Assembly: GCA_002011115.2 (NCBI GenBank)
Contig: MTME02000038.1
Location: forward strand, 10,475 to 74,474
Source: Candidatus Pyrohabitans sp. JdFR-17
GTDB lineage: Archaea > Hydrothermarchaeota > Hydrothermarchaeia > Hydrothermarchaeales > BMS3B
DNA: 64,000 nt
Reading direction: 5' to 3'
A model generated the notes under the pieces. It did no database searches, had not been told where the DNA came from, and worked only from the letters and a program-made list of their open reading frames with translations. Both the position numbers and the translations under genes were made by a program. Positions 4,075-42,350 of the stretch are shown one piece after another. Numbering within the stretch: position 1 is the first letter of the stretch; each line of letters begins with the position of its first letter.

Positions 4075-4284
4075 GTGGTGTACCTGCCGGAATCAACTAC
4101 AATAATGGTAAAGGAGGACGTGCTGCAGGCGCTCAGGAGGCTGAGGAAAGAGCTCGGCGCTGAGTCCTACGATGAAGTGCTCAGGATTATAATCAGACGC
4201 TTTAAGAGCCTTGATAGGTCGCACTTCGGCACTCTGCCGGAGCTCAAGCCCTTCAAGAGGGAGGAAATTGACCGTTTTGATTGA
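4075..4284 (+). CDS. vapB: VapB-like antitoxin
   Basis: About 60-70 aa ORF whose stop overlaps the start of a PIN-domain gene. TATA-like atataaaaatat lies upstream. The start is ambiguous (GTG 4075 or ATG 4105). Confidence 0.6.
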   Translation: MVYLPESTTIMVKEDVLQALRRLRKELGAESYDEVLRIIIRRFKSLDRSHFGTLPELKPFKREEIDRFD

Positions 4285-4651
4285 CTCCTGGGCGTGGGTT
4301 GAGTACTTCAGGGGCTCTGAGGCCGGGGAAAGAGCAAGGGAGTTCATAGAGGGGGAAGAGGAAGCGGTGGTGAGCACAATTAACCTGGCAGAGGTGTACA
4401 GATGGATTCTGAGGTTTTATCCGGATGAGGTGGCGGAGGAGAAGGTTAGAGCCATGAAGCAGAGGTGCATGGTACTTGAGGTCACCGAGGGGATTGCTAT
4501 AGAGAGCGCAAAGCTGAAGCACAGGCTGAGGCTCAGGCTGGGAGACGCGATAATCCTGGCAACCGCAAGAGCGACAAAGGCGAGGATAGTTACGGGCGAC
4601 CCGGATTTCGGGGATATAGAGGATGTGGTGTTCATAGGCGTGGAGGACTAG
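4268..4651 (+). CDS. vapC: PIN-domain ribonuclease toxin VapC
   Basis: (M)TVLIDSWAWVEY...TINLAEV...LGDAIILATA...IVTGDPDF fits the PIN acidic-residue pattern. I chose the TTG at 4268, which overlaps the end of vapB, rather than the track ATG at 4211. Confidence 0.8.
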   Translation: MTVLIDSWAWVEYFRGSEAGERAREFIEGEEEAVVSTINLAEVYRWILRFYPDEVAEEKVRAMKQRCMVLEVTEGIAIESAKLKHRLRLRLGDAIILATARATKARIVTGDPDFGDIEDVVFIGVED

Positions 4652-4667
4652 CTCATTTCAGAAGATT

Positions 4668-4766
4668 TTAAAATATAACCCTGGCATAATTCATCGCCTC
4701 TGCAAGCGAGTAAACCTCGCCGTCGCTCAAGCCATCGTTGTCGGTATCTGCGTAGTTCAAACCTGC
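4668..4766 (-). pseudogene. orphan relic of a TSP3-repeat coding segment (no start codon)
   Basis: Reads AGLNYADTDNDGLSDGEVYSLAEAMNYARVIF-stop and is preceded by an in-frame TAA. Nt 4715-4737 are identical to 6440-6462 inside the toxin gene, which there encodes DGLSDGE. Confidence 0.45.
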
Positions 4767-4818
4767 TTACTCGATAGAGAGTTCCCACCCACAAGGGTGC
4801 AACATCTCTATCCATTTT

Positions 4819-5511
4819 CTACTTAATACCAAGGTGTGTTTCAACTTCTTTTTTCTTTTTATCTACTTCATTGATATTCATTGGATTAGGTGCGAGAACC
4901 AGCAATATTCCACCATCACCGAGCTCCTCTATTTTCCAGGCTGGAGCAGAGAGGAGCTTTTCTCTGCCAATTTTTTGAACAAACACACGAGAGAAAAAGT
5001 TTGCCCAACAGAGATGTCTAATATTTCCTGAGAGGATTTCATCTTCGGATGGGATCTCTCTCCAACCAATCCCATATTCCCCAAATCCATAAATTGGACT
5101 AAGATACTCGTACAATTTTCTACCCAATTTGAGTATAATTTCAATGTTTGTTTCCGCTTTTTGATTCCAGTCTGGGATATCTCTAAGATAAACTCTATTG
5201 AAAGTTAGACTAATAATACCCAATTTTTCATCATTTGTTGGTTTTGGACGTATTCCGAGGGTAAAACACATTTTCCCATGCCATAAATTGATGGCTCCCC
5301 CACCATCTATAGAAATTGTATGGATCGCTTCAGATAATGGACGCTCCCAAAACCAATCACCCTTTTTATCTGACCAATATCCACTCTTAAAATAATCCCC
5401 TGGCTCGTAAACACATCCTGCTTTCAATAATACATCTAATACTCCTTTAATAAACCTTTGATTGCAATCTATCGACTTAATATAAAAAAATATATCACAG
5501 TTATCCGACAT
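4819..5511 (-). CDS. candidate immunity protein for the upstream toxin tip
   Basis: The ATG overlaps the toxin stop (TAATG). AT-rich like the toxin tip. The C-terminal WANFFSRVFVQKIGREKLLSAPAWKIEELGDGGILLVLAPNP is reminiscent of some bacterial immunity-protein families (from memory, not searched). Confidence 0.65.
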   Translation of the reverse strand: MSDNCDIFFYIKSIDCNQRFIKGVLDVLLKAGCVYEPGDYFKSGYWSDKKGDWFWERPLSEAIHTISIDGGGAINLWHGKMCFTLGIRPKPTNDEKLGIISLTFNRVYLRDIPDWNQKAETNIEIILKLGRKLYEYLSPIYGFGEYGIGWREIPSEDEILSGNIRHLCWANFFSRVFVQKIGREKLLSAPAWKIEELGDGGILLVLAPNPMNINEVDKKKKEVETHLGIK

Positions 5512-8500
5512 TACTGGATCACCTCTACAATAACACCTTTTTCATATTCTAACCATGTCTTAATATCAGGGTCTACTTTTCCTTTAAATATAATAATTTT
5601 TTTAGCAGTTGGGTCATAAGCGTTAAATCTCTTAATTTTGTTGCCTAAATCACTCTTTAACATATTATAAGCATCAGAACCTGGTGTGACTCTAGTCCAA
5701 TCTATATTCTTTGCTTCAATTATTGTTCCATCCTTGAGTAGAACATCAATATCTGTTGATCCTTCAGGTGTAATTATATATTTCCCAAGCCATTCAATAT
5801 TATTAGCATCTTTTGTAACAGCCACTTCAGCCTCGAATATCGCCCCTTTATCCCCTGTTTCAATTCTGTGCACCAATTCTTCATAACCTTTAATTCCTTT
5901 CAGTTCACTTAAAATCTCATCTAAGTATCTTGTGGATTTTGTCGGAAATCTCTTAAGGACAAATTCAATAACACTGGATATCTTATTTTTAAATGCTTTA
6001 GCAAACTTTCCGACTTTAACCACTGTCGATTCGGCATCTCCTATCAAAGGTACTAAACCAACCGCAGTCAGAGCAAAATCCAACTCATCTCCTCTTATAA
6101 CAGTGCTGGGTAAGTCTCTCAAATCTCCAATAACGAGGTAGCCGCTTAATATCCAGCCACTCAAGTATGCAAGATTTCCATGAGTTGGGTCGTCGAGTCC
6201 AAAATCACCTAGTACAAATCCCCAGAATGCTTCCTCAATCCATCCAGGTTCAGGTTTGAATGGATTAGTACCCTGTTCTAACTCCAATTTGTCATTAAAT
6301 CCATCGCCATCGGTATCCGCCTTTCTGGGGTCGGAGTTGTACTCGTAGTGGTAGCCGTCGTAGGGTGGCCAGCCGTACTTCCAGCGCAAGCTGTTGTACA
6401 GAAGCTTGTTCCAGTAGTCGTAGACCACGCTGCCCATCTCCTCGCCGTCGCTCAAGCCATCGCCGTCTGTGTCGGCGTTGAACGGGTCTGTGGTGACGTA
6501 GGCGTGCGGAAACGCTAAGCGCATGCCGTGGATCTCCTCATAGTCCGTTAGGCCATCGCCGTCGCTGTCCAGGTACCTAGAGAAGTCCCTGCAGGCGTTG
6601 TTGTTGCCCTCATCCAGCTCCGCTATTAAATTAGCCGGGTCCACCTTCACGTATATCCTCTCAACTCCTGCCTCAACCACCCACTCTATCGATGCGACCG
6701 CAGAGCTCCCTGCGGCGATGCTGGCTATGCTGGTGCTGCCTATTAGCTCTGAATCAGCGTAGAAGCTAACCTCAACGTTGGAAGCGGCGCCCTTGCCGAG
6801 GTTGTGGACCCTCGCCTTAATCCTCATCTTCTCCCCTGGCTTAAGCACCAGCTCCGGCTTCTCCCAGTCCACGTACCACTGGCTGAACCACTTGCTGGGC
6901 GATGCGACGCTGAAGGTGGAGAGGTGGGTTACATTGCCCCAGACGTAGTGCTCCTGCTCGTTCACCCCCTGAACCTCCACTAAGCGAAGGCTGTTGTCGC
7001 TCTCGTTGTAGTAGAACATCCGGAGCTCAGAGACGTTTTCCACCTGAGCGGGGTCGTAGTATATCTTTATGTACGCCGACTCAACCCTGGAGGCGGTGGA
7101 TACCTCAACCACCTTTACCACGCCGCTGAGCTGGGAAAGCAAAACACTGGCGTTTTCGGCTTCTGCTATAACAATGCTCTTGCTGGCGTCACCCACCGCA
7201 GTTATTGTTGCCTCAACTCCAGCGGAAGCGTTGACGAAGCTTTGGGTGAAAGTCTCGTTGCCGTCGGCTAAGCCATCGCCATCGCTGTCGCTGACAAGCG
7301 GGTTGGTGCCCAGCCTGAGCTCGCTGTCATCGCTAAGGCCGTCGCCGTCGGTGTCATCGCTGAGCGGATTCGTGCCGATGCTCACCTCGTAGCCATCGCT
7401 AAGCGTATCGCCGTCGGTGTCATTGCCTAGCGGGTCAGTGCCCAGAGACTGCTCCTGCAGGTTGCTCAGGGCGTCTTCGTCCAAATCTTCCTCCGCATCA
7501 CTCAAGCCATCGCCGTCGGTGTCGGCAGAGGTGGGGCTTGTACTTGTGCTGAACACCTCAAAGGAGTCGGTTAAGCCATCGGCATCGGTATCGCCCGAGA
7601 AGGGATTCGTGCCGAGCCTGAACTCCTGCAGGTTGTTCAGAGCGTCGCCATCAAAGTCTTCCTCGTCGTCGGGTATGCCGTTTCCTGCCTCGCTTTCTGG
7701 CGTTAGAGAGGAGTCGGAGTCGGCGTTTAACGGGTCAGTGGCAGTCACGTTTACCTCGTACCAGTCAGGCAGATTATCGCTGTCCACCAGCAAAGTTTTC
7801 TCCCACTCCGCAGAGTTGCCTGCCAGGTCAGTGGCTATGACAACAAAGCGGTTAACACCAAGGGAGATGCTGGCCGTGTATACTGCGGAGCCGTTTTCAA
7901 GTGCAACGGGCTCGCCATTCACCGTTACGCTGGCATTTTCGTTGACAGAAATTAAAAGCGGATACTCGGGGTTGTCTATCGTGGGATAGAGGTTCAACTC
8001 GGTTATGTGCAGCTCGGGTGGTGTGTTGTCGATGGTTACGCTTGCTGAAGCGTTTGCCACATTCCCGGCCTTGTCCACAGCCACGAGTTCGATGACATAT
8101 GCGCCGTCCTCGTATGCGGAGGTGTTCCAGGTGAAGCTGGTCTCATTCTCGGCAACAACTGTGCCGTTGATCAGGAGAATGAATCTGTCGAGGAAGAGGT
8201 CTTCTGCCTTTGCTGTGATGTTTACAATTCCCCTCAGAATGGCGCCGTCGAGTGGGAAAATTATCTCCGCGCTGGGCGGGGTGTTGTCCACGGTAACCGT
8301 AATCTCCGTGGATGCGGCGTTTCCTGCTTTATCCAGAGCGGTGAGGCGCAGGGTGTGGTTCCCATCCCTGTAGGCGGAGGTATTCCAGAGGTATGGCAGG
8401 GCGGTGCTCACGTTAACGCCGTCTATGGTGAGGGTGATTGAGTGCAGGTTGGCGTCCCTAACGAAGCCGTCAACCTCCACAAGGCGCCGCACAAAGGCTC

Positions 8501-9800
8501 CTCCTGTGGGAGACGTGAAGCCCACCTCGGGCAGGGTGTTGTCGACAACCACCTCCACTGCATCGCTGCCAGCGTTGCCAGCTCTATCGTAGGCGTACAC
8601 CTCAATGGTGTGGTTGCCATCCCTATAGAGGGTGGTGTCCAGCACGTATGGCAGAGAGGTGGCAAGCTCGACGCCGTCAAGCATAACAGAAACACCCAAA
8701 AGGTTGGCTTCCTCCACCTCCGCGTCAACGGTTACATTGCCTCTGAGGTATTTTTGCAGAGGTGAGGTGATTCTCACCCGCGGGTGTGTGTTGTCAACGG
8801 TTACCTCCACCCTCGTGGAAGCGCAGTTTCCTGCTTTGTCCCATGCCTCTAGGGTTAAGGTGTGGTTGCCGTCAGCATACATGCTTGTGTTCCAAGCGTA
8901 CTGCGGAGAGCGAGCCACCTCTGCCGAGTCGATTTTCAGGGAAAACCCCTCTAGGTTGGCATCTCTCGCTGAGCCGTTTATCTCCACAACGCCCCTTACA
9001 AAGCTTCCCGCGAGCGGGTAGTGTATCGCCACCTCTGGGGGCGTGGTATCTATGGTGAAGAGCACCGCCTCGTAGGCAGAATTTCCTGCCAAGTCGGTGG
9101 CGAACACCTCGAGCACATACGCACCCTCTGCGGAGATCTCCTCGCCCGGGGTGTAGGCTTCACCGTTCAGCAGAATGAGCACCTCCGCCAGGTGCAGGTC
9201 GAAAACCTCAACGCTGGCGACGACGCTGTGGTTGTAGTAGGCACCTGCTTCAACACCACTTATGTTTATCTCCGGCGGGAGGGTGTCTAGGGTAATGTTT
9301 ACTTCCGCATAGCCGGCGTTGCCGAAGTAGTCAACGACGCTCACACCTATTACGTTCTCACCCTCCGCCAGCTCAACCTCGGCGCTGAAGCTGCCATTCA
9401 CCAGCCGGGCGGAGAAGGCTTCGCCGTTTACAGTAATGGTGACGTTTTCAATCAGAGACACCAGGTAGTCCAACACGCTTCCGGAGATCTCCTGGAGGGA
9501 GGAGTTGGTGTAGGAGTTGTTGGCAGGCGACTCTATGATCACCACCGGCGGGGTGTACCTGTCCATCTCCAGCAGGTAGGGGAAGATGCTCCGCCAGGCG
9601 TTGATGAAGAACTGCACCGCCACCACATACCTCCTGGCGTCGATGTGCTCTTGGGTTTTGGAGAGGTGTGCCTCCGCCCTTAAGAGGCGCTCTTCCAGCT
9701 CCTCCCCCTGTTCGCCGGAGAGCCATGCAAGTAGCCCCCGCGCCTCCTCTACTGCGATGTGGGCGAGCATCATATCCGCCTGCACCAGCTTCGCCAGCAC
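5511..9800 (-). CDS. giant polymorphic-toxin-like protein: Ig-like repeats, TSP3-like Ca-binding repeats, CARDB-like domain, PD-(D/E)xK-like C-terminal tip
   Basis: Tandem repeats each ending in VDNTxP. DTDGDGLSD-type repeats in two blocks. CARDB-like HNLGKGAASNVEVSFY...DEGNN. Tip motif IFEAEVA...TDIDVLLKDGTIIEAKN. The GTG start at 9800 is uncertain because the frame is open to 9881. Confidence 0.85.
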   Translation of the reverse strand: MLAKLVQADMMLAHIAVEEARGLLAWLSGEQGEELEERLLRAEAHLSKTQEHIDARRYVVAVQFFINAWRSIFPYLLEMDRYTPPVVIIESPANNSYTNSSLQEISGSVLDYLVSLIENVTITVNGEAFSARLVNGSFSAEVELAEGENVIGVSVVDYFGNAGYAEVNITLDTLPPEINISGVEAGAYYNHSVVASVEVFDLHLAEVLILLNGEAYTPGEEISAEGAYVLEVFATDLAGNSAYEAVLFTIDTTPPEVAIHYPLAGSFVRGVVEINGSARDANLEGFSLKIDSAEVARSPQYAWNTSMYADGNHTLTLEAWDKAGNCASTRVEVTVDNTHPRVRITSPLQKYLRGNVTVDAEVEEANLLGVSVMLDGVELATSLPYVLDTTLYRDGNHTIEVYAYDRAGNAGSDAVEVVVDNTLPEVGFTSPTGGAFVRRLVEVDGFVRDANLHSITLTIDGVNVSTALPYLWNTSAYRDGNHTLRLTALDKAGNAASTEITVTVDNTPPSAEIIFPLDGAILRGIVNITAKAEDLFLDRFILLINGTVVAENETSFTWNTSAYEDGAYVIELVAVDKAGNVANASASVTIDNTPPELHITELNLYPTIDNPEYPLLISVNENASVTVNGEPVALENGSAVYTASISLGVNRFVVIATDLAGNSAEWEKTLLVDSDNLPDWYEVNVTATDPLNADSDSSLTPESEAGNGIPDDEEDFDGDALNNLQEFRLGTNPFSGDTDADGLTDSFEVFSTSTSPTSADTDGDGLSDAEEDLDEDALSNLQEQSLGTDPLGNDTDGDTLSDGYEVSIGTNPLSDDTDGDGLSDDSELRLGTNPLVSDSDGDGLADGNETFTQSFVNASAGVEATITAVGDASKSIVIAEAENASVLLSQLSGVVKVVEVSTASRVESAYIKIYYDPAQVENVSELRMFYYNESDNSLRLVEVQGVNEQEHYVWGNVTHLSTFSVASPSKWFSQWYVDWEKPELVLKPGEKMRIKARVHNLGKGAASNVEVSFYADSELIGSTSIASIAAGSSAVASIEWVVEAGVERIYVKVDPANLIAELDEGNNNACRDFSRYLDSDGDGLTDYEEIHGMRLAFPHAYVTTDPFNADTDGDGLSDGEEMGSVVYDYWNKLLYNSLRWKYGWPPYDGYHYEYNSDPRKADTDGDGFNDKLELEQGTNPFKPEPGWIEEAFWGFVLGDFGLDDPTHGNLAYLSGWILSGYLVIGDLRDLPSTVIRGDELDFALTAVGLVPLIGDAESTVVKVGKFAKAFKNKISSVIEFVLKRFPTKSTRYLDEILSELKGIKGYEELVHRIETGDKGAIFEAEVAVTKDANNIEWLGKYIITPEGSTDIDVLLKDGTIIEAKNIDWTRVTPGSDAYNMLKSDLGNKIKRFNAYDPTAKKIIIFKGKVDPDIKTWLEYEKGVIVEVIQ

Positions 9801-9820: not shown

Positions 9821-10432
9821 TCAGCGAAGACCTCTTCTCGCGGTTGAAATCAGTACCCTGAGGTGCTGCGCCGCCTGCATCTCAAGCTTCATCACCCTCT
9901 CCGAGAGGATGTGCCGCTCATCCAGCCAGAGGCTCGAAGTGAGGCTCCTGTTGATGAGCTGCGAGGTTTTTCGCAGCCTGTGGTTGTCCTCACCCCAGCC
10001 CTCAAGCGAATTCACCTCCTCCAGAGCCTGGAGTTTGAGTGTGTAGGGTGGCACCTCCGTAAAGGAAATGTTGAGGGTGATGTTCCTGAGGTTGTCGTGG
10101 GATTTGTTCACCCTAGTTTTGTTGTGCCCGCCCTTCAGGTGCTTTTTGTGCTCCCTTTTCTGATGGCGATCTGCACTAACCGGACCTCCTCCCTTCCCCC
10201 TATCGCTTCCCTTCGCCTTACCGTGGGCTCCTCCATCGCCGGCGCTCCCCTTACCCGGGCCGCCGCTTCCTCCACCTTCCCCGTGGCTCCCTCCACTCTT
10301 GTCCTTCCCAGCCTTGGTGTCCTTAGCTGCCTCCGCCAAGCTTACCGGTGAAATGATGAATATGAGGATTGAAAAGAAAACAACCAGCCTCCTCGCCCAG
10401 AGGTCCAACTCAGCCACCTCCCACCCTTTCAA
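9821..10432 (-). CDS. signal/TM-anchored Gly/Lys-rich protein, possibly the detached N-terminus of the toxin
   Basis: Hydrophobic LVVFFSILIFIISPVSLAEA, then a low-complexity GG/K-rich spacer, then a helical tail. Its 3' end overlaps the open toxin frame out of phase. Confidence 0.45.
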   Translation of the reverse strand: MKGWEVAELDLWARRLVVFFSILIFIISPVSLAEAAKDTKAGKDKSGGSHGEGGGSGGPGKGSAGDGGAHGKAKGSDRGKGGGPVSADRHQKREHKKHLKGGHNKTRVNKSHDNLRNITLNISFTEVPPYTLKLQALEEVNSLEGWGEDNHRLRKTSQLINRSLTSSLWLDERHILSERVMKLEMQAAQHLRVLISTARRGLR

Positions 10433-12800
10433 ATACTATGTCCTCTTCAGAAATCGCCAGGTCGGGAAGGCCCGCCACACTTATCGAGACTGATGCCGAG
10501 TCGCTCCCACCCTTGCCGTCGCTGACAGTTGCCGTAACAGTGTAGGTTCCAGCCACGCCGGGGGCCGTCCAGGTGACCTGCGCACCTGAGCCGGAGATGC
10601 TCCCGCCGCTGGCGCTCCAGGAGTAGCTCAGCGGGTCTCCGTCAGGATCAGAGGCCACGACAGTTATTGTTGAGCTGCCACCCGGCGGCACACTCTGCGG
10701 CTCTGCTGTGATGGAGGATATCACCGGAGGTTGATTTAAGCTGATGCTGAAGCTTCTGGAAGTGGTAATCCCGTAGTTCCCTGCCCTATCCCTCGCCCTA
10801 ACGTACACGGTGCACATGTCGCTTCCCTCGTGCCTGCAGTCGCCGCTGGAGCCCACGCTTATGGTGACAGAAGAGGAGCAGGAGCGGAGGGTCCAGTCCC
10901 TTGTGGTAACTCCCCCGCTCTTGACCATATAGTAGCATGCATATACGCCGGAGACAGCATCTGAGTCGGTTACTGAGACGGTGAAGTCCTCGCTGTGCCA
11001 GGAGCCAGCAGAGGGGGAGGTGATGGCTGAACTTGGAGGCGTCCAGTCTATGCTGAAGGAGCGGTAGTCTGTGGCCCAGTTACCAGCCCCATCCACGGCT
11101 TTGCTGTACACTGTGCATACATCCCTGCCCTCGTCCTGACAGTACTTCCAGGAGTAGGGTCCAACGGATATCCACACGTCTCCGTTGCAGTCCCTGTCTG
11201 TCCAGTCCTTGGTTACCGTGCCATCACTGACCACCCTGTACTGGCAGTAGCTGAGGCCGGAGCCACCGGTATCAGAGTCTGAGAAGTGCACATAGAAGCC
11301 TTGGTTTTGCCACGAACCCGTGGAGGGTGAGGTTATCTCTGTTGTCGGGTCTTCAGTGTCTGGCTCGGTGTAGTAGATGTACAGGATGGGTCTGCGGTAT
11401 GTGGTTGAGTACTCACTGGAGAAAAAGTACTGCGTGTACTTGGTAGGCGAATCCTCGGAGCTGTCCTTCACGTAGAGGCTTAGGACCCCATCGCCGGCGA
11501 GGTTGTTCTTCACAGCATTTATGAAGTTTTCTACATCCCTTCCAAAGTACTTGTAGCCGCTGTCGCCTATCCTGATGACATCCAGAACCGTTGACCTATA
11601 TCCTGGCTGGTTGTTCCAGGTTATGGTGTCCTCATCCCAGCTGTCGTGCAAGGCCTCGCGAATCTCGATGTACCTGTCTCCAGAGCCGGTGCTCCCGAAG
11701 TCCTTGTAGAGCTGTAGCATGGCGTTTGTTACACTGTCTGCATCAATATATGAGGGGAGGGAGAATTTCAGTATCGCCCTTACGTCGGCGCCACTTTTGC
11801 TCTGCACCGCCAGATAAATGCTTGAGCCGTAGTTCCAGTCCGGGCTGTATTCAACCAGCTCGGCGTCGTTGGAGGGGTAGATGGACACTGCCGGGTCTAT
11901 GTAAACCGGATATTTTCTGTTGCTGTCGTTTAGCCAAGCTTCGGGAACCTTTAAGGATATTCTCAGGTGGTTTCCTTCCCTTACAATTAGATAGCTACCA
12001 TAGGTGAAGTTTAGGTTGGAATCGTATATAAAGGGATGGTTTATTTTAAATATTATTTTATCGCCGTATATGAAGGAAATGCTTCTGTTTGTTTCTATTT
12101 CTCCTTCCACCTCTTTTCCGTCCACCACAACCGCCAACTCAGGGGAGTGGTGCAGGATTCCGCTAAATTTTATTTTCTTGGATTTCGCTGGTGGTTTCTT
12201 CAGGATGTAGGTCTCCTTTAAAATTGTGGGCAGGTACTCGTACTCAACGTCAACATCCGGATATGCAAGTTTGAAGGCAATTTTGTGGCCCTTAATCTTC
12301 TCAGACCTTTTGATAAACGGCTTTTTAACATTTCCTACGTGCATATATTTGTTTTGGAATTTTATATAAAAGTCGTCCTTTTCTATCAATACAGAGGAGT
12401 CCCTGCCCCAGCGGGCTTTGTAGATTCCTTCGTCCACAAAGTGTCCATTTCTGTCAGACTTTATGGTTCCGTTGATGGGAACATATCTCCCGCCCTTTAG
12501 ATAGTTGATCGGGAAGGTCGCTACCTCAACCACATGGATACCGTCCGGCAGGATATAGTCGTTGTAATTTAGACCTCGCTTGAATATCTTTCGCTCAGTG
12601 GTAATTTCAGGAGCAGTACCAACGATAGAGACGTTGGAGATGACATTCTTAGATGTCGCATGGTTTCCAGATACAGCAGTTTCAGCCGCCACTGGACCAA
12701 AAAGGCTGAAAATCAGAGCCAATATTAATATCGCATTAATAAGATGTGAATATCTGTTTTTGAGGAGCTTCCTTGTGCCGGCAGGAGAAGAAAGCATCAA
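10410..12800 (-). CDS. large secreted protein with DNRLRE-like, twin Cys-containing Ig-like and PKD-like modules
   Basis: Signal/anchor ILILALIFSLFGPVAAETA. RAILKFSLPSY...WDEDTITWNNQPGY is DNRLRE-like. Two ITSPS.GSW...CTVY..A.D.AGN repeats. SDPDGDPLSYSWSASGG...TATVSDGKGG is PKD-like. Confidence 0.8.
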   Translation of the reverse strand: MMLSSPAGTRKLLKNRYSHLINAILILALIFSLFGPVAAETAVSGNHATSKNVISNVSIVGTAPEITTERKIFKRGLNYNDYILPDGIHVVEVATFPINYLKGGRYVPINGTIKSDRNGHFVDEGIYKARWGRDSSVLIEKDDFYIKFQNKYMHVGNVKKPFIKRSEKIKGHKIAFKLAYPDVDVEYEYLPTILKETYILKKPPAKSKKIKFSGILHHSPELAVVVDGKEVEGEIETNRSISFIYGDKIIFKINHPFIYDSNLNFTYGSYLIVREGNHLRISLKVPEAWLNDSNRKYPVYIDPAVSIYPSNDAELVEYSPDWNYGSSIYLAVQSKSGADVRAILKFSLPSYIDADSVTNAMLQLYKDFGSTGSGDRYIEIREALHDSWDEDTITWNNQPGYRSTVLDVIRIGDSGYKYFGRDVENFINAVKNNLAGDGVLSLYVKDSSEDSPTKYTQYFFSSEYSTTYRRPILYIYYTEPDTEDPTTEITSPSTGSWQNQGFYVHFSDSDTGGSGLSYCQYRVVSDGTVTKDWTDRDCNGDVWISVGPYSWKYCQDEGRDVCTVYSKAVDGAGNWATDYRSFSIDWTPPSSAITSPSAGSWHSEDFTVSVTDSDAVSGVYACYYMVKSGGVTTRDWTLRSCSSSVTISVGSSGDCRHEGSDMCTVYVRARDRAGNYGITTSRSFSISLNQPPVISSITAEPQSVPPGGSSTITVVASDPDGDPLSYSWSASGGSISGSGAQVTWTAPGVAGTYTVTATVSDGKGGSDSASVSISVAGLPDLAISEEDIVFERVGGG

Positions 12801-16101: not shown

Positions 16102-17433
16102 TTAATAATTTGTAATGGGTTCTACTACATGTTTTAAATCTTTAATTATTTCTTTTTCGCTCTTTTTAAGATTTTCTTTCATTAAATCGACTACCTTAAC
16201 ATGAATTTTCAGCTCTCGTGGCATGTCACAATTTACATGACACTCATCACTGTGGAGAGGTATAGTTATTTGCTTTTCGCTGGTTTCTGAATAATTATAA
16301 GGCTTTGGATAGAGGAGCACGATCTCTGGACATTTTCCTGCTATACCATAGGCTATCATCTGATATATATCCTGATTTGATGGCTTAATCTTTTCTTTAT
16401 GGTCAATTTTATATTTAGTGTCTATTATCATGTGAATTTTACTATTTTTTAATATAGCAATATCTGCTTTTGGTATTATATCCTCATGCTTATCCAAATT
16501 ACCAATATTATACTGTAATTCAATCTGATAATCCACCAATCCAAGATCTTTTTTATGCTTCTTTATTATTCTGCCTATAAACTCTTCAAAGAGCTTGTTC
16601 ATATCAAAAACTATCCCGCCATATTCAAATCTGCCAGAAGTTAAATCTACAGAGAAGTTCCCTATGAACATAAAGCACTTATCTATCACTGGCTTAAACT
16701 GAATATTCAGCCTATTGAAGTGGATTTTGTTTTGGTGATATGGCTGAATTACCACATCGCTTATATCATCAAATATGAATAGAATATTGTCAATTTTTCT
16801 GTGATTCTCATAGCTTTGAGATATCACTCTCAGAAGTTTCAGAGTATATTTTATTGTCTGGTTGATTAGATTGTCCCAGGTTAGCTCATCAAACTGACAG
16901 TAGGCAAGAGGAAGATTTCTGGCAGCGTTGCTCTTTATGTGCTTGGCTAAAAGCAACTTGCCTCTCACTGTTGATAGGTTCTCTTCAACGGTGATGTACT
17001 CCTTAAATATTGATGATTGCAGTACTTTTTCAAGCTCTGCCAAGAACATATTTATGTATATTTCAAGAATGTCGCCTTTTTTGAATAGAGATACTGGAGT
17101 TTCTCCAGTTCTCAAATCCATTGTGTACTTAAGCATGAAGTGCAGATTTCTCAGAGCTTCAGTTACTTTGCTTTCATCTTCCCCTGTACTTCTGTATAAT
17201 TTTGGAAGTATCTGAATTCTCCTTTTGCCAACCTGAAGCACACCCACATAATGGTAAGTTCTCAGTCTATCTCCATGAAGCACTGTTATGATGTCAGTAT
17301 CAGCCTTCAGCAGAGTTTTCAGCCTGTCGTTTATTTCTATTAATCTGTTTTTCTCTGTATCTGAGAGTGCTTGTGACCCCTTCAGCTTTCTGCACGGCTC
17401 ATATTCGAATATGTTTATTGTGTTATTTGCCAT
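16102..17433 (-). CDS. mcrC: McrC-like PD-(D/E)xK endonuclease subunit
   Basis: PKADIAILKNSKIHMIIDTKYK...QDIYQMIAYG is the McrC-type D...D/ExK plus QM.aY motif. The gene lies directly downstream of the McrB-like AAA+ gene. Confidence 0.8.
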   Translation of the reverse strand: MANNTINIFEYEPCRKLKGSQALSDTEKNRLIEINDRLKTLLKADTDIITVLHGDRLRTYHYVGVLQVGKRRIQILPKLYRSTGEDESKVTEALRNLHFMLKYTMDLRTGETPVSLFKKGDILEIYINMFLAELEKVLQSSIFKEYITVEENLSTVRGKLLLAKHIKSNAARNLPLAYCQFDELTWDNLINQTIKYTLKLLRVISQSYENHRKIDNILFIFDDISDVVIQPYHQNKIHFNRLNIQFKPVIDKCFMFIGNFSVDLTSGRFEYGGIVFDMNKLFEEFIGRIIKKHKKDLGLVDYQIELQYNIGNLDKHEDIIPKADIAILKNSKIHMIIDTKYKIDHKEKIKPSNQDIYQMIAYGIAGKCPEIVLLYPKPYNYSETSEKQITIPLHSDECHVNCDMPRELKIHVKVVDLMKENLKKSEKEIIKDLKHVVEPITNY

Positions 17434-17450
17434 GCCAGTTCTCCGATTTA

Positions 17451-18557
17451 TTATACTTTCTTCAATGCTTCAATTAATTTTTCAGCACTTTCCAAATCTT
17501 TTATTTTATAACGCATTATATCTTCAAGGTCTTCATCTTTTTTGAGTATATCGTCCTCGTCTTTTTTTATTTCTTCAATAAATACATTACCAGCTTCACC
17601 AAGAACTTTTTTGATTTTCTCATAGTCGTTGTAGAAGTACTCCTGAAGCAGTGGAATTATCTCGTAGTACCAGATTCTGTGGAGGTTCTGCTTCCAGAGC
17701 TCTGGCTTATCCTTATATTCACCATTCTCATTCCTGAAGATGTTCAGGAAATAGGCATGGCCTATCTGTTTCTCTCTGTCAACATAGAAGGTTATTCTTC
17801 TGTTCATGGCTTTGAGAAGCTCTGAGATATCAAGACCATTTAATCCGCTTTTTGCGGCATCTTCAGTTATCTTTCCGTCTGATGCTTCTTCTAAAATTTC
17901 ATAGAATTCTCCATCTTCAGGCGGAATTTCAACAAACCCAAACCTTCTTCTGAGGGCTATATCCACAAGGGCTATTGACCTGTCGGCGGTGTTCATGGTG
18001 CCTATGATGTAAAGGTTGGACGGGACTCCAAACTTCTCCTTGGAGTAGGGGAGAGTTACAATGGTCTGATGTTTACCGCCTATCCTCTTGTCGGGCTCCA
18101 GAAGGGTTATGAGCTCGCCGAAGATCTTTGATATGTTGCCCCTGTTTATCTCGTCAATTATCAGAACGTATTTTTTGAGGCTATTGTTTTTCATAGCGTC
18201 GCGTATTTTATCTCTGTTCTCGTATAGAATTTCAAATATGTTTTTGCCATTATTTTTATTGTCAGATTCACAATCTATACTCACAGCTTCACATAGGGCA
18301 CGTGCTGCTTTAATGCAGATTTGCTTGAAGATCCCATCTTCCTTCCTAAATCCTCCATCATCTGGTCGATAACCCTCAACAAACTCCTCATAGCTGTAGG
18401 TTGGGTGAAAGGTTACAAATTTTATCCTCTCATTCTCTTCCAGCTTTTTATAATCTTCTTCAAAATCCTTCATATAAGCACTACCTTTGATGAAATTTGT
18501 GGTTATTTGTCTTGCTTTGAATGTTTTACCTGTACCAGGTGGTCCATAAAGGATCAT
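17451..18557 (-). CDS. mcrB: McrB-like AAA+ GTPase motor (begins right at the P-loop)
   Basis: MILYGPPGTGKT. VLIIDEINRGNISKIFGELITLLE. IIGTMNTADRS. ALRRRFGF. Confidence 0.85.
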   Translation of the reverse strand: MILYGPPGTGKTFKARQITTNFIKGSAYMKDFEEDYKKLEENERIKFVTFHPTYSYEEFVEGYRPDDGGFRKEDGIFKQICIKAARALCEAVSIDCESDNKNNGKNIFEILYENRDKIRDAMKNNSLKKYVLIIDEINRGNISKIFGELITLLEPDKRIGGKHQTIVTLPYSKEKFGVPSNLYIIGTMNTADRSIALVDIALRRRFGFVEIPPEDGEFYEILEEASDGKITEDAAKSGLNGLDISELLKAMNRRITFYVDREKQIGHAYFLNIFRNENGEYKDKPELWKQNLHRIWYYEIIPLLQEYFYNDYEKIKKVLGEAGNVFIEEIKKDEDDILKKDEDLEDIMRYKIKDLESAEKLIEALKKV

Positions 18558-19963
18558 TTGTTTTTTATTAGAATTAAATTGTTAAAATTCAAACTTGATT
18601 TAATATATCTGTGTACATTTTCTATCTTTTTATTTAATCCAAGTTTTTCGATTAAATTTTTAATAACTTCAATTGATTCGTCTTTTTTTAACTTAAATAC
18701 TGGATCTCGGGATGTTATCTGCGGAATTTCATATCCTGCTTTATCAGTGAATACCCACTTTACATCGCGTAAGTGGCAGATATAGGTTCCCGGTACTTTT
18801 GTAGGATCAAAGTAATAATCACTGGTAATTACCCCAATCCCGACAATCTTCTTTAAGCCAGATCTTACAGCAACAATATCTCCTATTTTCATCCCTCTAT
18901 AGAAGTTCCAAATATAATTAAATGTACGGCTTGCAGATTTTTCTGGATCCTTGTTATATTTTTCTAAATCGTCTTTATATACATCCTTATAGATCTCTTT
19001 GAATTCCTTTTCAAATTCGGCTTTGTTTTTGTAGCGTCTGAAGTCACCATATTCCTCATCACCAATACCAATTACTCCATGTTCTCTGCATTCTTCCCAA
19101 TATTCACCTTTATAACCTGGTGCTACTACCCAATATTGCAGATTTTCATCCATCAAAACACCCCCAATTTTGGAAATTGGTATTTTTATTTGTTCATAAT
19201 CATTTATGGGTTTATTTTTGTTATCTGTCAGCTTTAATAATAGACGATAGAATTCTTTAATGATAGCATCATTTTTGTATTGTTCTTTATTTTCCAGCGT
19301 ATCTATTAGATCCATTCTTCTTTTTTCGTGTGAATAGTTCAACTTGTCAATAACATTAAATAGCTGATCAATTTCAAGATTAATTGGTACTTCATGAGCA
19401 GTACCTTTTGTTGCATGCCCAACAATTTTTTTGTAACATTTTTCCTTAAATTCATCGAAATTACTTTCAAATTCCTGGTAATCGCCTTTTAGTTTAAAAC
19501 CGAAGAATTCTAATCCAGTTATAGAGGCATTATTCCTTATTGGGTGTTTGTCAATGTGTATTGTGCCGTAAAGTTCCCCAAAATAGCTTCTTAAATGTCT
19601 TTTTCTTCCTTTTTTACCTTTTAATGTGAATGTATATACCCAGCTCTCATTAAATTTATCAGATTTGTATATATCTAAAAATAAACTTTTTATCTCAGAC
19701 GAATTATATTTATCTAATAAAAGCGTAGTTTCTGTTTTGCCTCTTGCATAAATTTCTTCTACAATTTTTCCGATGATTTTTCTAATTTCCTCATTATCGC
19801 CTGTATATTGTAATTTTTTGAAATAACTGTTCATACGTTTAATTTTCCCTTCGAACCCTGCAAAGTTAAAATGAAGGTTATTTTCTCCAGTATACTTTTT
19901 TGCCACCTCTCTCCACAATTCCAAAAGCTTCACCTTCTCCCCGCTCAGGTTGCATTCATTCAT
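18554..19963 (-). CDS. McrB N-terminal module: unassigned ~270-aa domain plus PUA/EVE-like putative modified-base reader
   Basis: YWVVAPGYKGEYWEECREHGVIGIG...MKIGDIVAV...IVGIGVITSDYYF is PUA-like. Its stop overlaps the McrB ATG (ATGA) next to an A6 tract. GGAGG and a TATA-like box lie upstream of the ATG at 19963. Confidence 0.7.
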   Translation of the reverse strand: MNECNLSGEKVKLLELWREVAKKYTGENNLHFNFAGFEGKIKRMNSYFKKLQYTGDNEEIRKIIGKIVEEIYARGKTETTLLLDKYNSSEIKSLFLDIYKSDKFNESWVYTFTLKGKKGRKRHLRSYFGELYGTIHIDKHPIRNNASITGLEFFGFKLKGDYQEFESNFDEFKEKCYKKIVGHATKGTAHEVPINLEIDQLFNVIDKLNYSHEKRRMDLIDTLENKEQYKNDAIIKEFYRLLLKLTDNKNKPINDYEQIKIPISKIGGVLMDENLQYWVVAPGYKGEYWEECREHGVIGIGDEEYGDFRRYKNKAEFEKEFKEIYKDVYKDDLEKYNKDPEKSASRTFNYIWNFYRGMKIGDIVAVRSGLKKIVGIGVITSDYYFDPTKVPGTYICHLRDVKWVFTDKAGYEIPQITSRDPVFKLKKDESIEVIKNLIEKLGLNKKIENVHRYIKSSLNFNNLILIKNK

Positions 19964-41810: not shown

Positions 41811-42350
41811 TCACTGCATTATAGCAGGAAGCTCGTGGCACTTCGTACAGGTCGTCTGGATATCGTGGCACTCACTGCAGAAGTTCTTGTGCCCATCGAA
41901 CTTCTCAAACGCCACCCTGTGCAAGCCGCTGCGCATGTCAGCCAGGGTAGGAGCGTCGTGGCACATGTCGCACTTGCCCTCGCCGTGAAGCGCCGCCTCC
42001 TTTGTTTCACCTGCCCCTTCCTTTGATTCAGCCGCTTTCTCCTCAGCCTTCTTCTCCTCCTGCGCAGGTGCTTCAGCGGCAGGAGCGCCGCCCTCAATCA
42101 GCCTAACCCCCACGTAGGCATGGCACTTATTGCAGAACTTATCTGGCTGATGGCAGTTCTTGCATGTATCCTCGCTCACCTTGCCGCTGGCGACCTCGTT
42201 TCCATGGTTCGCCTTCCAGTATACCATGTCCACCTTTGGTGAGGGATGTTCCTTGAGCGACGAATCCTTAACAGGCTTCTCCGGTGGTGCTACACAACCG
42301 CTGAGCAGAAGGATGCCCAGCATCGCAATGAATATCAACACCTTTTTCAT
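41811..42350 (-). CDS. lipoprotein pentahaem c-type cytochrome
   Basis: Lipobox LLLSGC. Five CxxCH motifs (CKNCH, CNKCH, CDMCH, CSECH, CTKCH). Confidence 0.85.
   Translation of the reverse strand: MKKVLIFIAMLGILLLSGCVAPPEKPVKDSSLKEHPSPKVDMVYWKANHGNEVASGKVSEDTCKNCHQPDKFCNKCHAYVGVRLIEGGAPAAEAPAQEEKKAEEKAAESKEGAGETKEAALHGEGKCDMCHDAPTLADMRSGLHRVAFEKFDGHKNFCSECHDIQTTCTKCHELPAIMQ

Follow-up and report, generated by a model that had tools for sequence, protein, structure and literature searches.

The question raised by this locus is whether a giant repeat-bearing protein of an archaeon and the small gene that follows it constitute a polymorphic toxin and its immunity protein. The locus lies in the window, by which the whole analysed stretch of 64,000 nucleotides (nt) is meant (Candidatus Pyrohabitans sp. 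JdFR-17, GCA_002011115.2, contig MTME02000038.1, positions 10,475 to 74,474), and consists of an open reading frame (ORF) of 1429 amino acids (aa) followed by an ORF of 230 aa. Polymorphic toxins are well studied in bacteria. The locus is very probably an archaeal polymorphic toxin-immunity system with a stalk of immunoglobulin (Ig)-like, thrombospondin type 3 (TSP3) and CARDB domains, and this reading was found to be well supported by comparison with related loci.

Architecture of the locus

The large ORF, its parts and the small ORF, all on the minus strand, were placed as follows.

5511-9800, minus strand: large ORF, 1429 aa
8016-9548, minus strand: six tandem Ig-like repeats (Pfam Big_13, Big_7, Glucodextran_B and Big_3_3, and regular expression)
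7251-7658, minus strand: TSP3 block 1, bacterial-type calcium-binding repeats (DxDxDG), motif residues 715-849
6594-6845, minus strand: CARDB domain (PF07705, 63.7 bits), residues 986-1069
6282-6569, minus strand: TSP3 block 2, residues 1078-1173, last repeat DTDGDGFND at ~6305 (motifs, three-way DNA alignment, GC content)
5943-6254, minus strand: pre-toxin module, ~100 aa, with two moderately hydrophobic Gly-rich helices
5514-5927, minus strand: C-terminal toxin domain, 138 aa, probable PD-(D/E)xK fold (17-sequence alignment)
5509-5513, minus strand: TAATG stop/start overlap between the toxin gene and the immunity gene (sequence)
4819-5511, minus strand: small ORF, 230 aa, immunity candidate

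The two ORFs and their TAATG junction, as given in the preliminary description, were recovered at these positions in the ORF list and the sequence. The minus strand at the junction reads CCAGTAATGTCG, in which the stop codon TAA (5513-5511) shares one base with the start codon ATG (5511-5509), and this overlap is predicted to couple the translation of the toxin and immunity genes. The Ig-like region, described earlier as tandem repeats of ~85 aa, was found by regular expression and Pfam to contain six units spaced 79-86 aa apart, which end with LDTLPP, IDTTPP, VDNTHP, VDNTLP, VDNTPP and IDNTPP at residues 171, 250, 335, 419, 504 and 590, respectively, and have the common ending [LIV]D[NT][TL]xP.

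The 1429-aa protein was found to contain six stretches of Big_13, five of Big_7, seven of TSP3_bac (106.7 bits, across two blocks) and one of CARDB, all above the curated Pfam cut-offs. By Pfam and motif positions the two TSP3 blocks flank the CARDB domain on either side, in agreement with the earlier account. RHS/YD repeats, the combination of TPS, FHA and VENN, and the MafB N-terminal domain were absent in Pfam and NCBIfam scans of the full protein, which returned only Ig-like, TSP3 and CARDB domains. The last 229 aa of the 1429-aa ORF and the 230-aa protein were without a credible Pfam or NCBIfam match.

Composition break and probable replacement of the tip

The switch from GC-rich to AT-rich DNA that had been noticed near 6300 was found to be a sharp break at ~6305, inside the last DTDGDG repeat. 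The GC content was 0.60 at 6306-6600, followed by 0.43 at 6136-6305, 0.35 at 5514-6135 and 0.37 in the 230-aa gene. At third codon positions the GC content (GC3) fell from 0.72 for the body to 0.33 for the pre-toxin region and 0.24 for the toxin domain, with 0.30 for the 230-aa gene, against a mean of 0.58 for 12 other ORFs of the window.

The closest related contig was L001 (GCA_026999735.1; related contigs and loci are referred to by L numbers). Two blocks were found by blastn, the first joining window 12852->6088 to L001 1-6720 at 85% nt identity and the second joining window 6160->4715 to L001 8138-9578 at 92% nt identity. Between these blocks L001 was found to contain a different, NERD-like main-gene tip, a 155-aa gene and the start of a standalone ORF of 260 aa (P0001). 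This orphan is 89% identical in aa to the window tip and is followed by a 230-aa gene that is 94% identical to that of the window. The gene order in L001 is body, tip A, 155-aa gene, orphan tip B, 230-aa gene and TSP3 stub, and the order in the window is body, tip B, 230-aa gene and TSP3 stub, the NERD-like tip and the 155-aa gene being absent. Closely related genomes, with bodies 85% identical in nt and 88% in aa, were found to differ in the C-terminal tip behind a conserved junction.

In a three-way DNA alignment the window was nearly identical to the main gene of L001 down to ~6305, unlike both L001 copies from ~6305 to ~6135, and nearly identical to the L001 orphan below ~6135. The 5′ boundary of the cassette was placed at the GC break in the last TSP3 repeat because the identity with the L001 main gene is lost at ~6305. 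Recombination by a simple crossover of main and orphan copies like those of L001 was rejected, as the alignment contained a third sequence variant at 6135-6305; the window cassette therefore has its own 5′ half of the pre-toxin module, and the L001 orphan is a 5′-truncated copy. The earlier proposal that the tip and the immunity gene were brought in together as a recombined cassette was supported by the conserved body, the differing tip, the match to the L001 orphan and the GC break, and the comparative tests all spoke in its favour, with the tip and the downstream gene found to co-vary. The locus in this way gives direct comparative evidence of cassette replacement in archaea.

The GC content of the cassette (0.33-0.37) was found to resemble that of low-GC contigs carrying cassette homologues (0.32-0.44), which is consistent with horizontal arrival. 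Identity to L001 was higher in the cassette (6088-4715, 92% nt) than in the adjoining body (12852-6088, 85% nt), which suggests a more recent exchange between both lineages or a stronger constraint. The immunity gene was found to be followed by one further element of the locus.

4671-4815, minus strand: TSP3 stub, degenerate and out of frame (…ADTDNDGLSDGE…), beyond the immunity gene (three-frame translation)

The homologue of this stub is a 46-aa TSP3 ORF in L001-L004, and the stub looks like the remnant of the body-3′ homology arm of a further, decayed cassette. At 4715, the end point of the blastn match, synteny was lost with L001, L002 and L008.

The pre-toxin module

The linker between the last TSP3 repeat and the tip, which had been called pre-toxin-like, was found to be a widespread module. 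With the tip profile, 1.84 billion representative proteins (clusters at 50% identity) were searched exhaustively by HMMER, which gave 337 clusters at E<=1e-3, and ~125 of the best 150 clusters matched profile positions ~15-130 only. In nearly every complete protein the module match was located 120-325 aa before the C-terminus. The consensus of 128 sequences contained G..GD ... YLxGW.xSG...GDxRD ... GD ... L.P..GDA ... KF, with several positions conserved in >95% of the sequences. No Pfam or NCBIfam model was found to match the module, and its highest Kyte-Doolittle mean was 1.39, lower than is customary for a transmembrane helix.

The sequences on the C-terminal side of the module, 115 tails in all, were found to form 21 sequence clusters. 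Matches above the Pfam cut-offs were found for AHH (54.6 bits), Tox-PL-2 (79.4), PT-HINT (105.5), CDI_toxin_EC869_like (32.7) and NERD (26.0), the last being the type of the L001 main tip, and a GIY-YIG match remained sub-threshold. The linker is a genuine pre-toxin module because accepted polymorphic-toxin domains come after it elsewhere. Upstream of the module, TSP3 repeats were present nearly always and VWA, CARDB, Ig-like or RTX domains often, and RHS, PAAR, LXG and FHA were found in none of the module-bearing proteins examined. The module was also found to be the homology arm common to the main genes and the orphan cassettes. A relation of the window tip to NERD by transitivity was considered and dropped, since the BLAST similarity lies in the common linker, outside the catalytic core, and the profile comparison by hhalign was negative.

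In the literature searched, to which the archaeal survey of Makarova et al. 2019 did not belong, no paper linking TSP3 stalks to polymorphic toxins was found. The TSP3-linked module could, tentatively, mark an undescribed Sec-dependent class of polymorphic-toxin delivery common to archaea (the Methanoperedens lineage and the window organism) and bacteria. The Gly-rich helical hairpin with its invariant GDxRD...GD...PxxGD would in such a class perhaps release the tip or translocate it into target cells, a role put forward with equal reserve. If the class is real, this locus would rank among the earliest systems of contact-dependent antagonism in non-halophilic archaea that lend themselves to study, and it would bring with it a new immunity fold and cassette states preserved in nature from before and after a switch.

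Linkage of tip and partner, orphan cassettes and distribution

In agreement with the linkage expected earlier, tip and 230-aa gene were found to adjoin, with overlapping stop and start codons, in seven contexts. Wherever upstream DNA was available, a tip of the same family directly precedes the 230-aa homologue, and overlapping junctions were also found in L001, L007, L009, L010, L011, L014 and L016. The identities of tip and partner to the window sequence were found to fall in parallel (from 89/94 to 37/33%).

L001: tip 89%, partner 94%
L009: tip 70%, partner 67%
L007: tip 58%, partner 60%
L016: tip 40%, partner 35%
L010: tip 35%, partner 38%
L014: tip 37%, partner 33%

In L011-L013 a partner of 40% identity was found after a more distant tip of the same family. 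Other tips were found with other partners. The NERD-like tip A of L001 is followed by the 155-aa gene, and in two Methanoperedens loci a gene of 159 or 162 aa stands between the NERD-like tip and a homologue of the 155-aa gene. In L017 an orphan tip of the P0013 type is followed by an unrelated 254-aa gene.

The order of main tip, small gene or genes, orphan tip and partner gene was found to recur in L001-L006, L016 (Ca. Methanoperedens sp.) and L017 (Ca. M. nitroreducens). L001-L006 carry the orphan P0001 with the 230-aa gene. The orphans of L016 and L017 (443 aa) hold ~140-160 aa of body 3′ sequence as a 5′ homology arm, and the window keeps only the TSP3 stub of such an arm. Among 185,579 species-representative genomes, searched with a 7-sequence core alignment, close relatives were found only in the two Candidatus Methanoperedens loci L016 and L017, the bodies of which are 57-61% identical to that of the window in protein sequence and have the same gene order including orphan cassettes. 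In the same genomes an Actinotalea protein was found to carry the pre-toxin module at 44% identity. Archaeal genes (TBP, an aIF2-beta-like gene and TFX) adjoin the locus in related contigs, and sequence identical to the window was found in SRR3723048, a crustal-fluid metagenome of the Juan de Fuca Ridge that has also yielded an Archaeoglobi genome (PMC6474303). The relation to Archaeoglobales assumed earlier is plausible on this basis.

Each of the Methanoperedens loci (L016 2434-15156 and L017 1984-14060) was found to hold two giant stalk genes with different tips, together with fragments of orphan tips and a number of small genes (116 to 254 aa) that are candidates for immunity. These loci are multi-cassette arsenals; L017_116 is a fragment of the tip of the first giant gene. 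At L001 8001-8130 the orphan P0001 ORF starts with MRQIYTFILLFLIFNSFITQAYA, which resembles a Sec signal peptide. P0001 might be a small secreted toxin itself, or the signal-like start might be an accident of AT-rich sequence.

The putative toxin domain

The tip was found to contain IFEAEVA and TDIDVLLKDGTIIEAKN, with the window signature G1319-x3-E1323, D1352 and E1362-x-K1364. The key codons, on the minus strand, are the following.

5832-5834, minus strand: E1323
5745-5747, minus strand: D1352
5715-5717, minus strand: E1362
5709-5711, minus strand: K1364

The alignment of 17 homologues (A8; ~140 aa, 21-78% identical to the window) contained invariant G28, D61 and K73, and E32 and E71 were conserved in at least 90% of the sequences. 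A short D...ExK pattern could arise by chance, but this was discounted because the G, E, D, E and K positions are invariant or nearly so across the 17 homologues. The nuclease motif E...D-x12-ExK that had been claimed for the tip was in this way found to be present and conserved, whereas no curated restriction endonuclease (REase) family was found to match the window tip. The domain was also found at the extreme C-terminus of other large proteins, and a word-indexed protein search with the tip profile added one 92-aa fragment and nothing else.

The tip of L011, upstream of P0008, was found to match Tox-REase-3 in the D...ExK region with 24.7 bits (E 3e-5), the cut-off being 25, and P0111 matched the same family with E=0.12. 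A signature of 'GxxxE, IxD, ExK' is tabulated for REase-7 among the Tox-REase families (Zhang et al. 2012, PMC3482391). On this sequence evidence the tip is probably a nuclease of the PD-(D/E)xK fold.

The immunity candidate

The 230-aa protein was found to have eight relatives of 26-94% identity among 5.8 billion clustered proteins. The C-terminal motif IGREKLLSAPAWKxEELxDGGILLVL of the family was nearly invariant and the N-terminal 170 aa were variable. The protein contained no signal peptide or hydrophobic segment. It matched no profile of the known immunity families (Pfam Imm*, SUKH, SuFu), the Pfam, NCBIfam and PADLOC searches being blank, and PADLOC gave no sign of an anti-phage defence system at the locus.

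Structure prediction, which had been suggested for both products, succeeded for one and failed for the other: the AlphaFold2 model of the 230-aa protein was confident, with a predicted local distance difference test (pLDDT) score of 91 and a predicted template modelling score (pTM) of 0.90, whereas the tip model failed (pLDDT 55). Foldseek with the 230-aa model returned no credible fold match, the best query-normalised template modelling (TM) score being 0.32 in PDB and 0.34 in BFVD. The position, coupling and co-variation of the gene fit a cytoplasmic immunity candidate of a new family. In seven contexts the small gene stands directly downstream of its cognate tip and co-varies with it, and its protective function is a prediction.

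The frameshift and the detached N-terminal piece

The region upstream of the large ORF was found to contain the following features.

9821-10432, minus strand: N-terminal piece of the ancestral giant gene, ORF of 203 aa, continuous with the body in L001
9847-9849, minus strand: TT insertion within a T run (ATTTC versus ATC in L001), from pairwise DNA alignment and three-frame translation

The 203-aa ORF opens with a strongly hydrophobic stretch, LVVFFSILIFIISPVSLAEA, that would be a signal peptide or membrane anchor (Kyte-Doolittle mean of 2.35 across 19 aa). A region rich in Gly and Lys comes next and then a helical one, and the ORF was without a Pfam match. In L001 the N-terminal piece, 66% identical to that of the window, and the body form a single ORF of 1666 aa. 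At the frameshift site the window reads CTGATTTCAACC and L001 reads CTGATCAACC, and the TT insertion splits the ORF with the secretion or anchor segment from the 1429-aa ORF. The 1429-aa ORF is the downstream part of the gene only, because the true N-terminus is held by the 203-aa ORF, fused to the body in L001. The 'helical N-terminus' formerly assigned to the 1429-aa ORF was consequently found to be internal sequence.

The TT insertion was also present in JGI 3300037583, JGI 3300002481 and Logan SRR12613063, whose sequences match the window over 10-13 kb at 99.99-100% identity and represent one population, not independent lineages. It is not a one-off assembly error, because the same sequence occurs in these three further assemblies. 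The first start codon of the downstream frame is GTG at 9800, and the N-terminus there is not hydrophobic. Whether the offensive arm has become inactive in the window genome through the TT insertion appears evenly balanced on the sequence. With the toxin gene cut from its signal peptide, the locus may now serve as an immunity locus only, and the intact immunity gene in this population would still protect. In L007 (3-2070, body 67% nt identity) the main gene was also found in two ORFs, with out-of-frame sequence after ...DPAQVSDPP, and this is either a second disrupted copy or an assembly error.

Proposed mechanism and alternative explanations

In the proposed mechanism, an ancestral gene of ~1,640 aa would give a Sec-exported surface protein, with the conserved ~100-aa pre-toxin module joining the stalk to a replaceable C-terminal toxin domain of ~140 aa. 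The coupled 230-aa cytoplasmic protein would bind and neutralise the toxin in the producer and its kin. The tip and the immunity gene would move together as an AT-rich cassette and would be exchanged by homologous recombination in the conserved TSP3/pre-toxin region, with standalone orphan cassettes stored downstream as the source. In the window genome the cassette that is an orphan in relatives stands in the expressed position, and the tip swap would have run in this direction.

Several results weigh against this mechanism. No dedicated secretion or processing gene was identified near the locus, and the 1429-aa product, if made, is predicted to be without a signal peptide. The window tip had no Pfam match at E<=1 and none in NCBIfam, profile searches of PDB with the 7- and 17-member tip alignments gave only chance matches, mainly to ribosomal protein eS1, and hhalign found no relation between the tip family and that of the NERD-like tip. 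The AlphaFold2 model of the tip, built on a 4-sequence alignment and not used as evidence either way, had a pLDDT of 55 overall and <50 over residues 154-185 with the catalytic strands, and Foldseek against PDB with this model gave only noise. The protein could alternatively be taken for a plain surface adhesin or S-layer-associated protein, with the helices as a membrane anchor, the last 140 aa as a cytoplasmic or structural tail, an unrelated 230-aa gene and no toxin. The body is made wholly of adhesin-type domains (Ig-like, TSP3 and CARDB), the upstream gene encodes another surface protein (CBM96 and PKD), the two Gly-rich helices are moderately hydrophobic and the tip is without database annotation, all of which an adhesin would accommodate. 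It would not account for the same module preceding AHH, Tox-PL-2, CDI EC869-like and PT-HINT domains elsewhere, nor for tips that differ between 85%-identical genomes with the body kept, for standalone tip-plus-partner cassettes, or for the strict adjacency, overlapping junctions and parallel divergence of tip and partner, and the hydropathy of 1.39 stays below the usual transmembrane-helix threshold. A plain adhesin is regarded as highly improbable.

The polymorphic-toxin reading leaves room for two narrower alternatives. The toxin gene of this genome could be a pseudogene whose export is lost, in a decayed locus kept for defence, where only the immunity gene would be functional and under selection and would guard against neighbours still deploying the same toxin. 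This refines the explanation for this genome and keeps the identity of the locus, and it is given the same weight as its opposite: the TT insertion at 9847-9849, which three assemblies from other datasets share with the window, the non-hydrophobic N-terminus from GTG 9800, the similar disruption of the L007 main gene and the degenerate TSP3 stub, which indicates that cassettes decay at the locus, all agree with decay, but the 4.3-kb downstream reading frame is wholly intact, which suggests that the lesion is recent or bypassed, and the other assemblies, being 99.99-100% identical, sample a single population. The tip could also be a toxin that is not a nuclease, with a coincidental E...D...ExK pattern or one that serves other chemistry or binding, and with a target other than DNA or RNA. 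The missing PD-(D/E)xK family match of the window sequence, the failed three-dimensional model and the negative hhalign result would agree with this. G-x3-E, D and E-x-K are nevertheless the most conserved columns of the 17-member alignment and resemble the Tox-REase signatures, and the L011 tip, with a 230-aa homologue downstream, reaches 24.7 bits (E 3e-5) to Tox-REase-3. The secondary-structure order in the pLDDT 55 model was helix, strand, strand, helix, strand, helix, strand; in this unreliable model the conserved residues were placed on a helix and two consecutive strands, in an order that would fit the fold, and the first core strand lies in the segment with pLDDT <50 and was not called. 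A toxin other than a nuclease is considered rather unlikely.

Relation to known systems

Archaeal polymorphic toxins are mostly comparative-genomic predictions and were still called experimentally uncharacterised in 2021 (PMC8416519); RHS toxins of Methanosarcina acetivorans are the archaeal case noted by Zhang et al. 2012 (PMC3482391). The locus was found to resemble the Sec-exported, stalked toxins of the Rhs/WapA type in its large repeat protein, predicted to be secreted in the ancestral form, in which a conserved junction is followed by an exchangeable putative toxin at the C-terminus. An adjacent downstream gene for the immunity candidate, standalone cassettes of tip and partner that retain a 5′ homology arm, and AT-rich tips that are probably mobile by horizontal transfer are further common traits. 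It differs in that RHS/YD repeats, PAAR and the DPxGL junction are absent, the stalk being Ig-like, TSP3 and CARDB, in that the junction is a pre-toxin module outside Pfam and NCBIfam, and in that the hosts are archaea without an outer membrane.

The likeness to CdiA-CT/CdiI of contact-dependent inhibition (CDI) lies in the modular CT/immunity pairs, in downstream orphan pairs from which a new tip can be recombined into the expressed position at a conserved pre-toxin motif, and in the fact that some proteins with the module of the window end in CDI_toxin_EC869_like, an REase-like DNase tip (PF21111). The window was found to contain neither TPS, FHA repeats and VENN motif nor a CdiB partner, and its own tip does not match PF21111. 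With the Tox-REase toxins (Zhang et al. 2012) the locus shares G-x3-E ... D ... E-x-K at the C-terminal tip, the L011 member reaching 24.7 bits to Tox-REase-3, whereas the partner is not Imm7, SUKH, Imm23 or Imm54 but an unannotated 230-aa family, and the window sequence had no match at E<=1. VARTIG of Thermococcales (Makarova et al. 2021, PMC8416519) is likewise archaeal and built on a large surface protein with Ig domains, the C-terminus of which is hypervariable and reshuffled by recombination, and the genes downstream vary as well. The variable part of VARTIG consists of an Ig domain, and neither toxin nor immunity domains were recognised there, whereas the variable part in the window is an enzyme-like tip that follows a pre-toxin module found elsewhere with known toxins.

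The logic of the locus is known, and it is here combined with an Ig/TSP3/CARDB stalk and with a pre-toxin module and an immunity family outside the domain libraries searched. Two genomes with one body at 85% DNA identity and with different tips form a natural experiment, in which the displaced or stored cassette is visible. The junction module, with 337 clusters missed by current domain libraries, could uncover more toxin and immunity genes of archaea and bacteria. The putative toxin/immunity pair is small and well defined (138 aa and 230 aa), and the immunity candidate is confidently predicted with no known structural relative. With a sequence from Juan de Fuca crustal fluid and homologues in Methanoperedens, the system bears on the ecology of subseafloor and methane-cycling archaea.

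Neighbouring features of the window

The gene upstream of the toxin gene (10410-12800, minus strand, 796 aa) was found to contain CBM96, a sub-threshold match to the disaggregatase repeat and PKD/Ig domains, and shares 23 nt with the start of the toxin gene. Its position is kept in L001 (84% aa identity) and in the Methanoperedens locus L016 (33% aa identity), and it may be an operon partner of the toxin gene.

Directly beyond the immunity gene, at 4075-4651 on the plus strand, a VapB-like antitoxin (69 aa) and a PIN/VapC toxin (146 aa) were found. The pair stands at the point (4715) beyond which L001, L002 and L008 are no longer syntenic with the window and run instead into TBP and the aIF2-beta-like gene.

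A second AT-rich island was found at 16102-19963 (minus strand), with a GC3 of 0.27-0.36 against ~0.6 in neighbouring ORFs. It contained a McrBC-type restriction system composed of McrC (PF10117, E 9e-65), an AAA_5 McrB-like ATPase and a 469-aa ORF without a Pfam match, and is probably another horizontally acquired defence island.

The identification as TBP, as in L001, was rejected for the 179-aa ORFs of the window and L016. The window ORF (41811-42350, minus strand) was found to encode a secreted protein of 179 aa with several CxxCH haem-binding motifs, a multi-haem cytochrome, which fits an iron-reducing or methane/alkane-cycling archaeal host.

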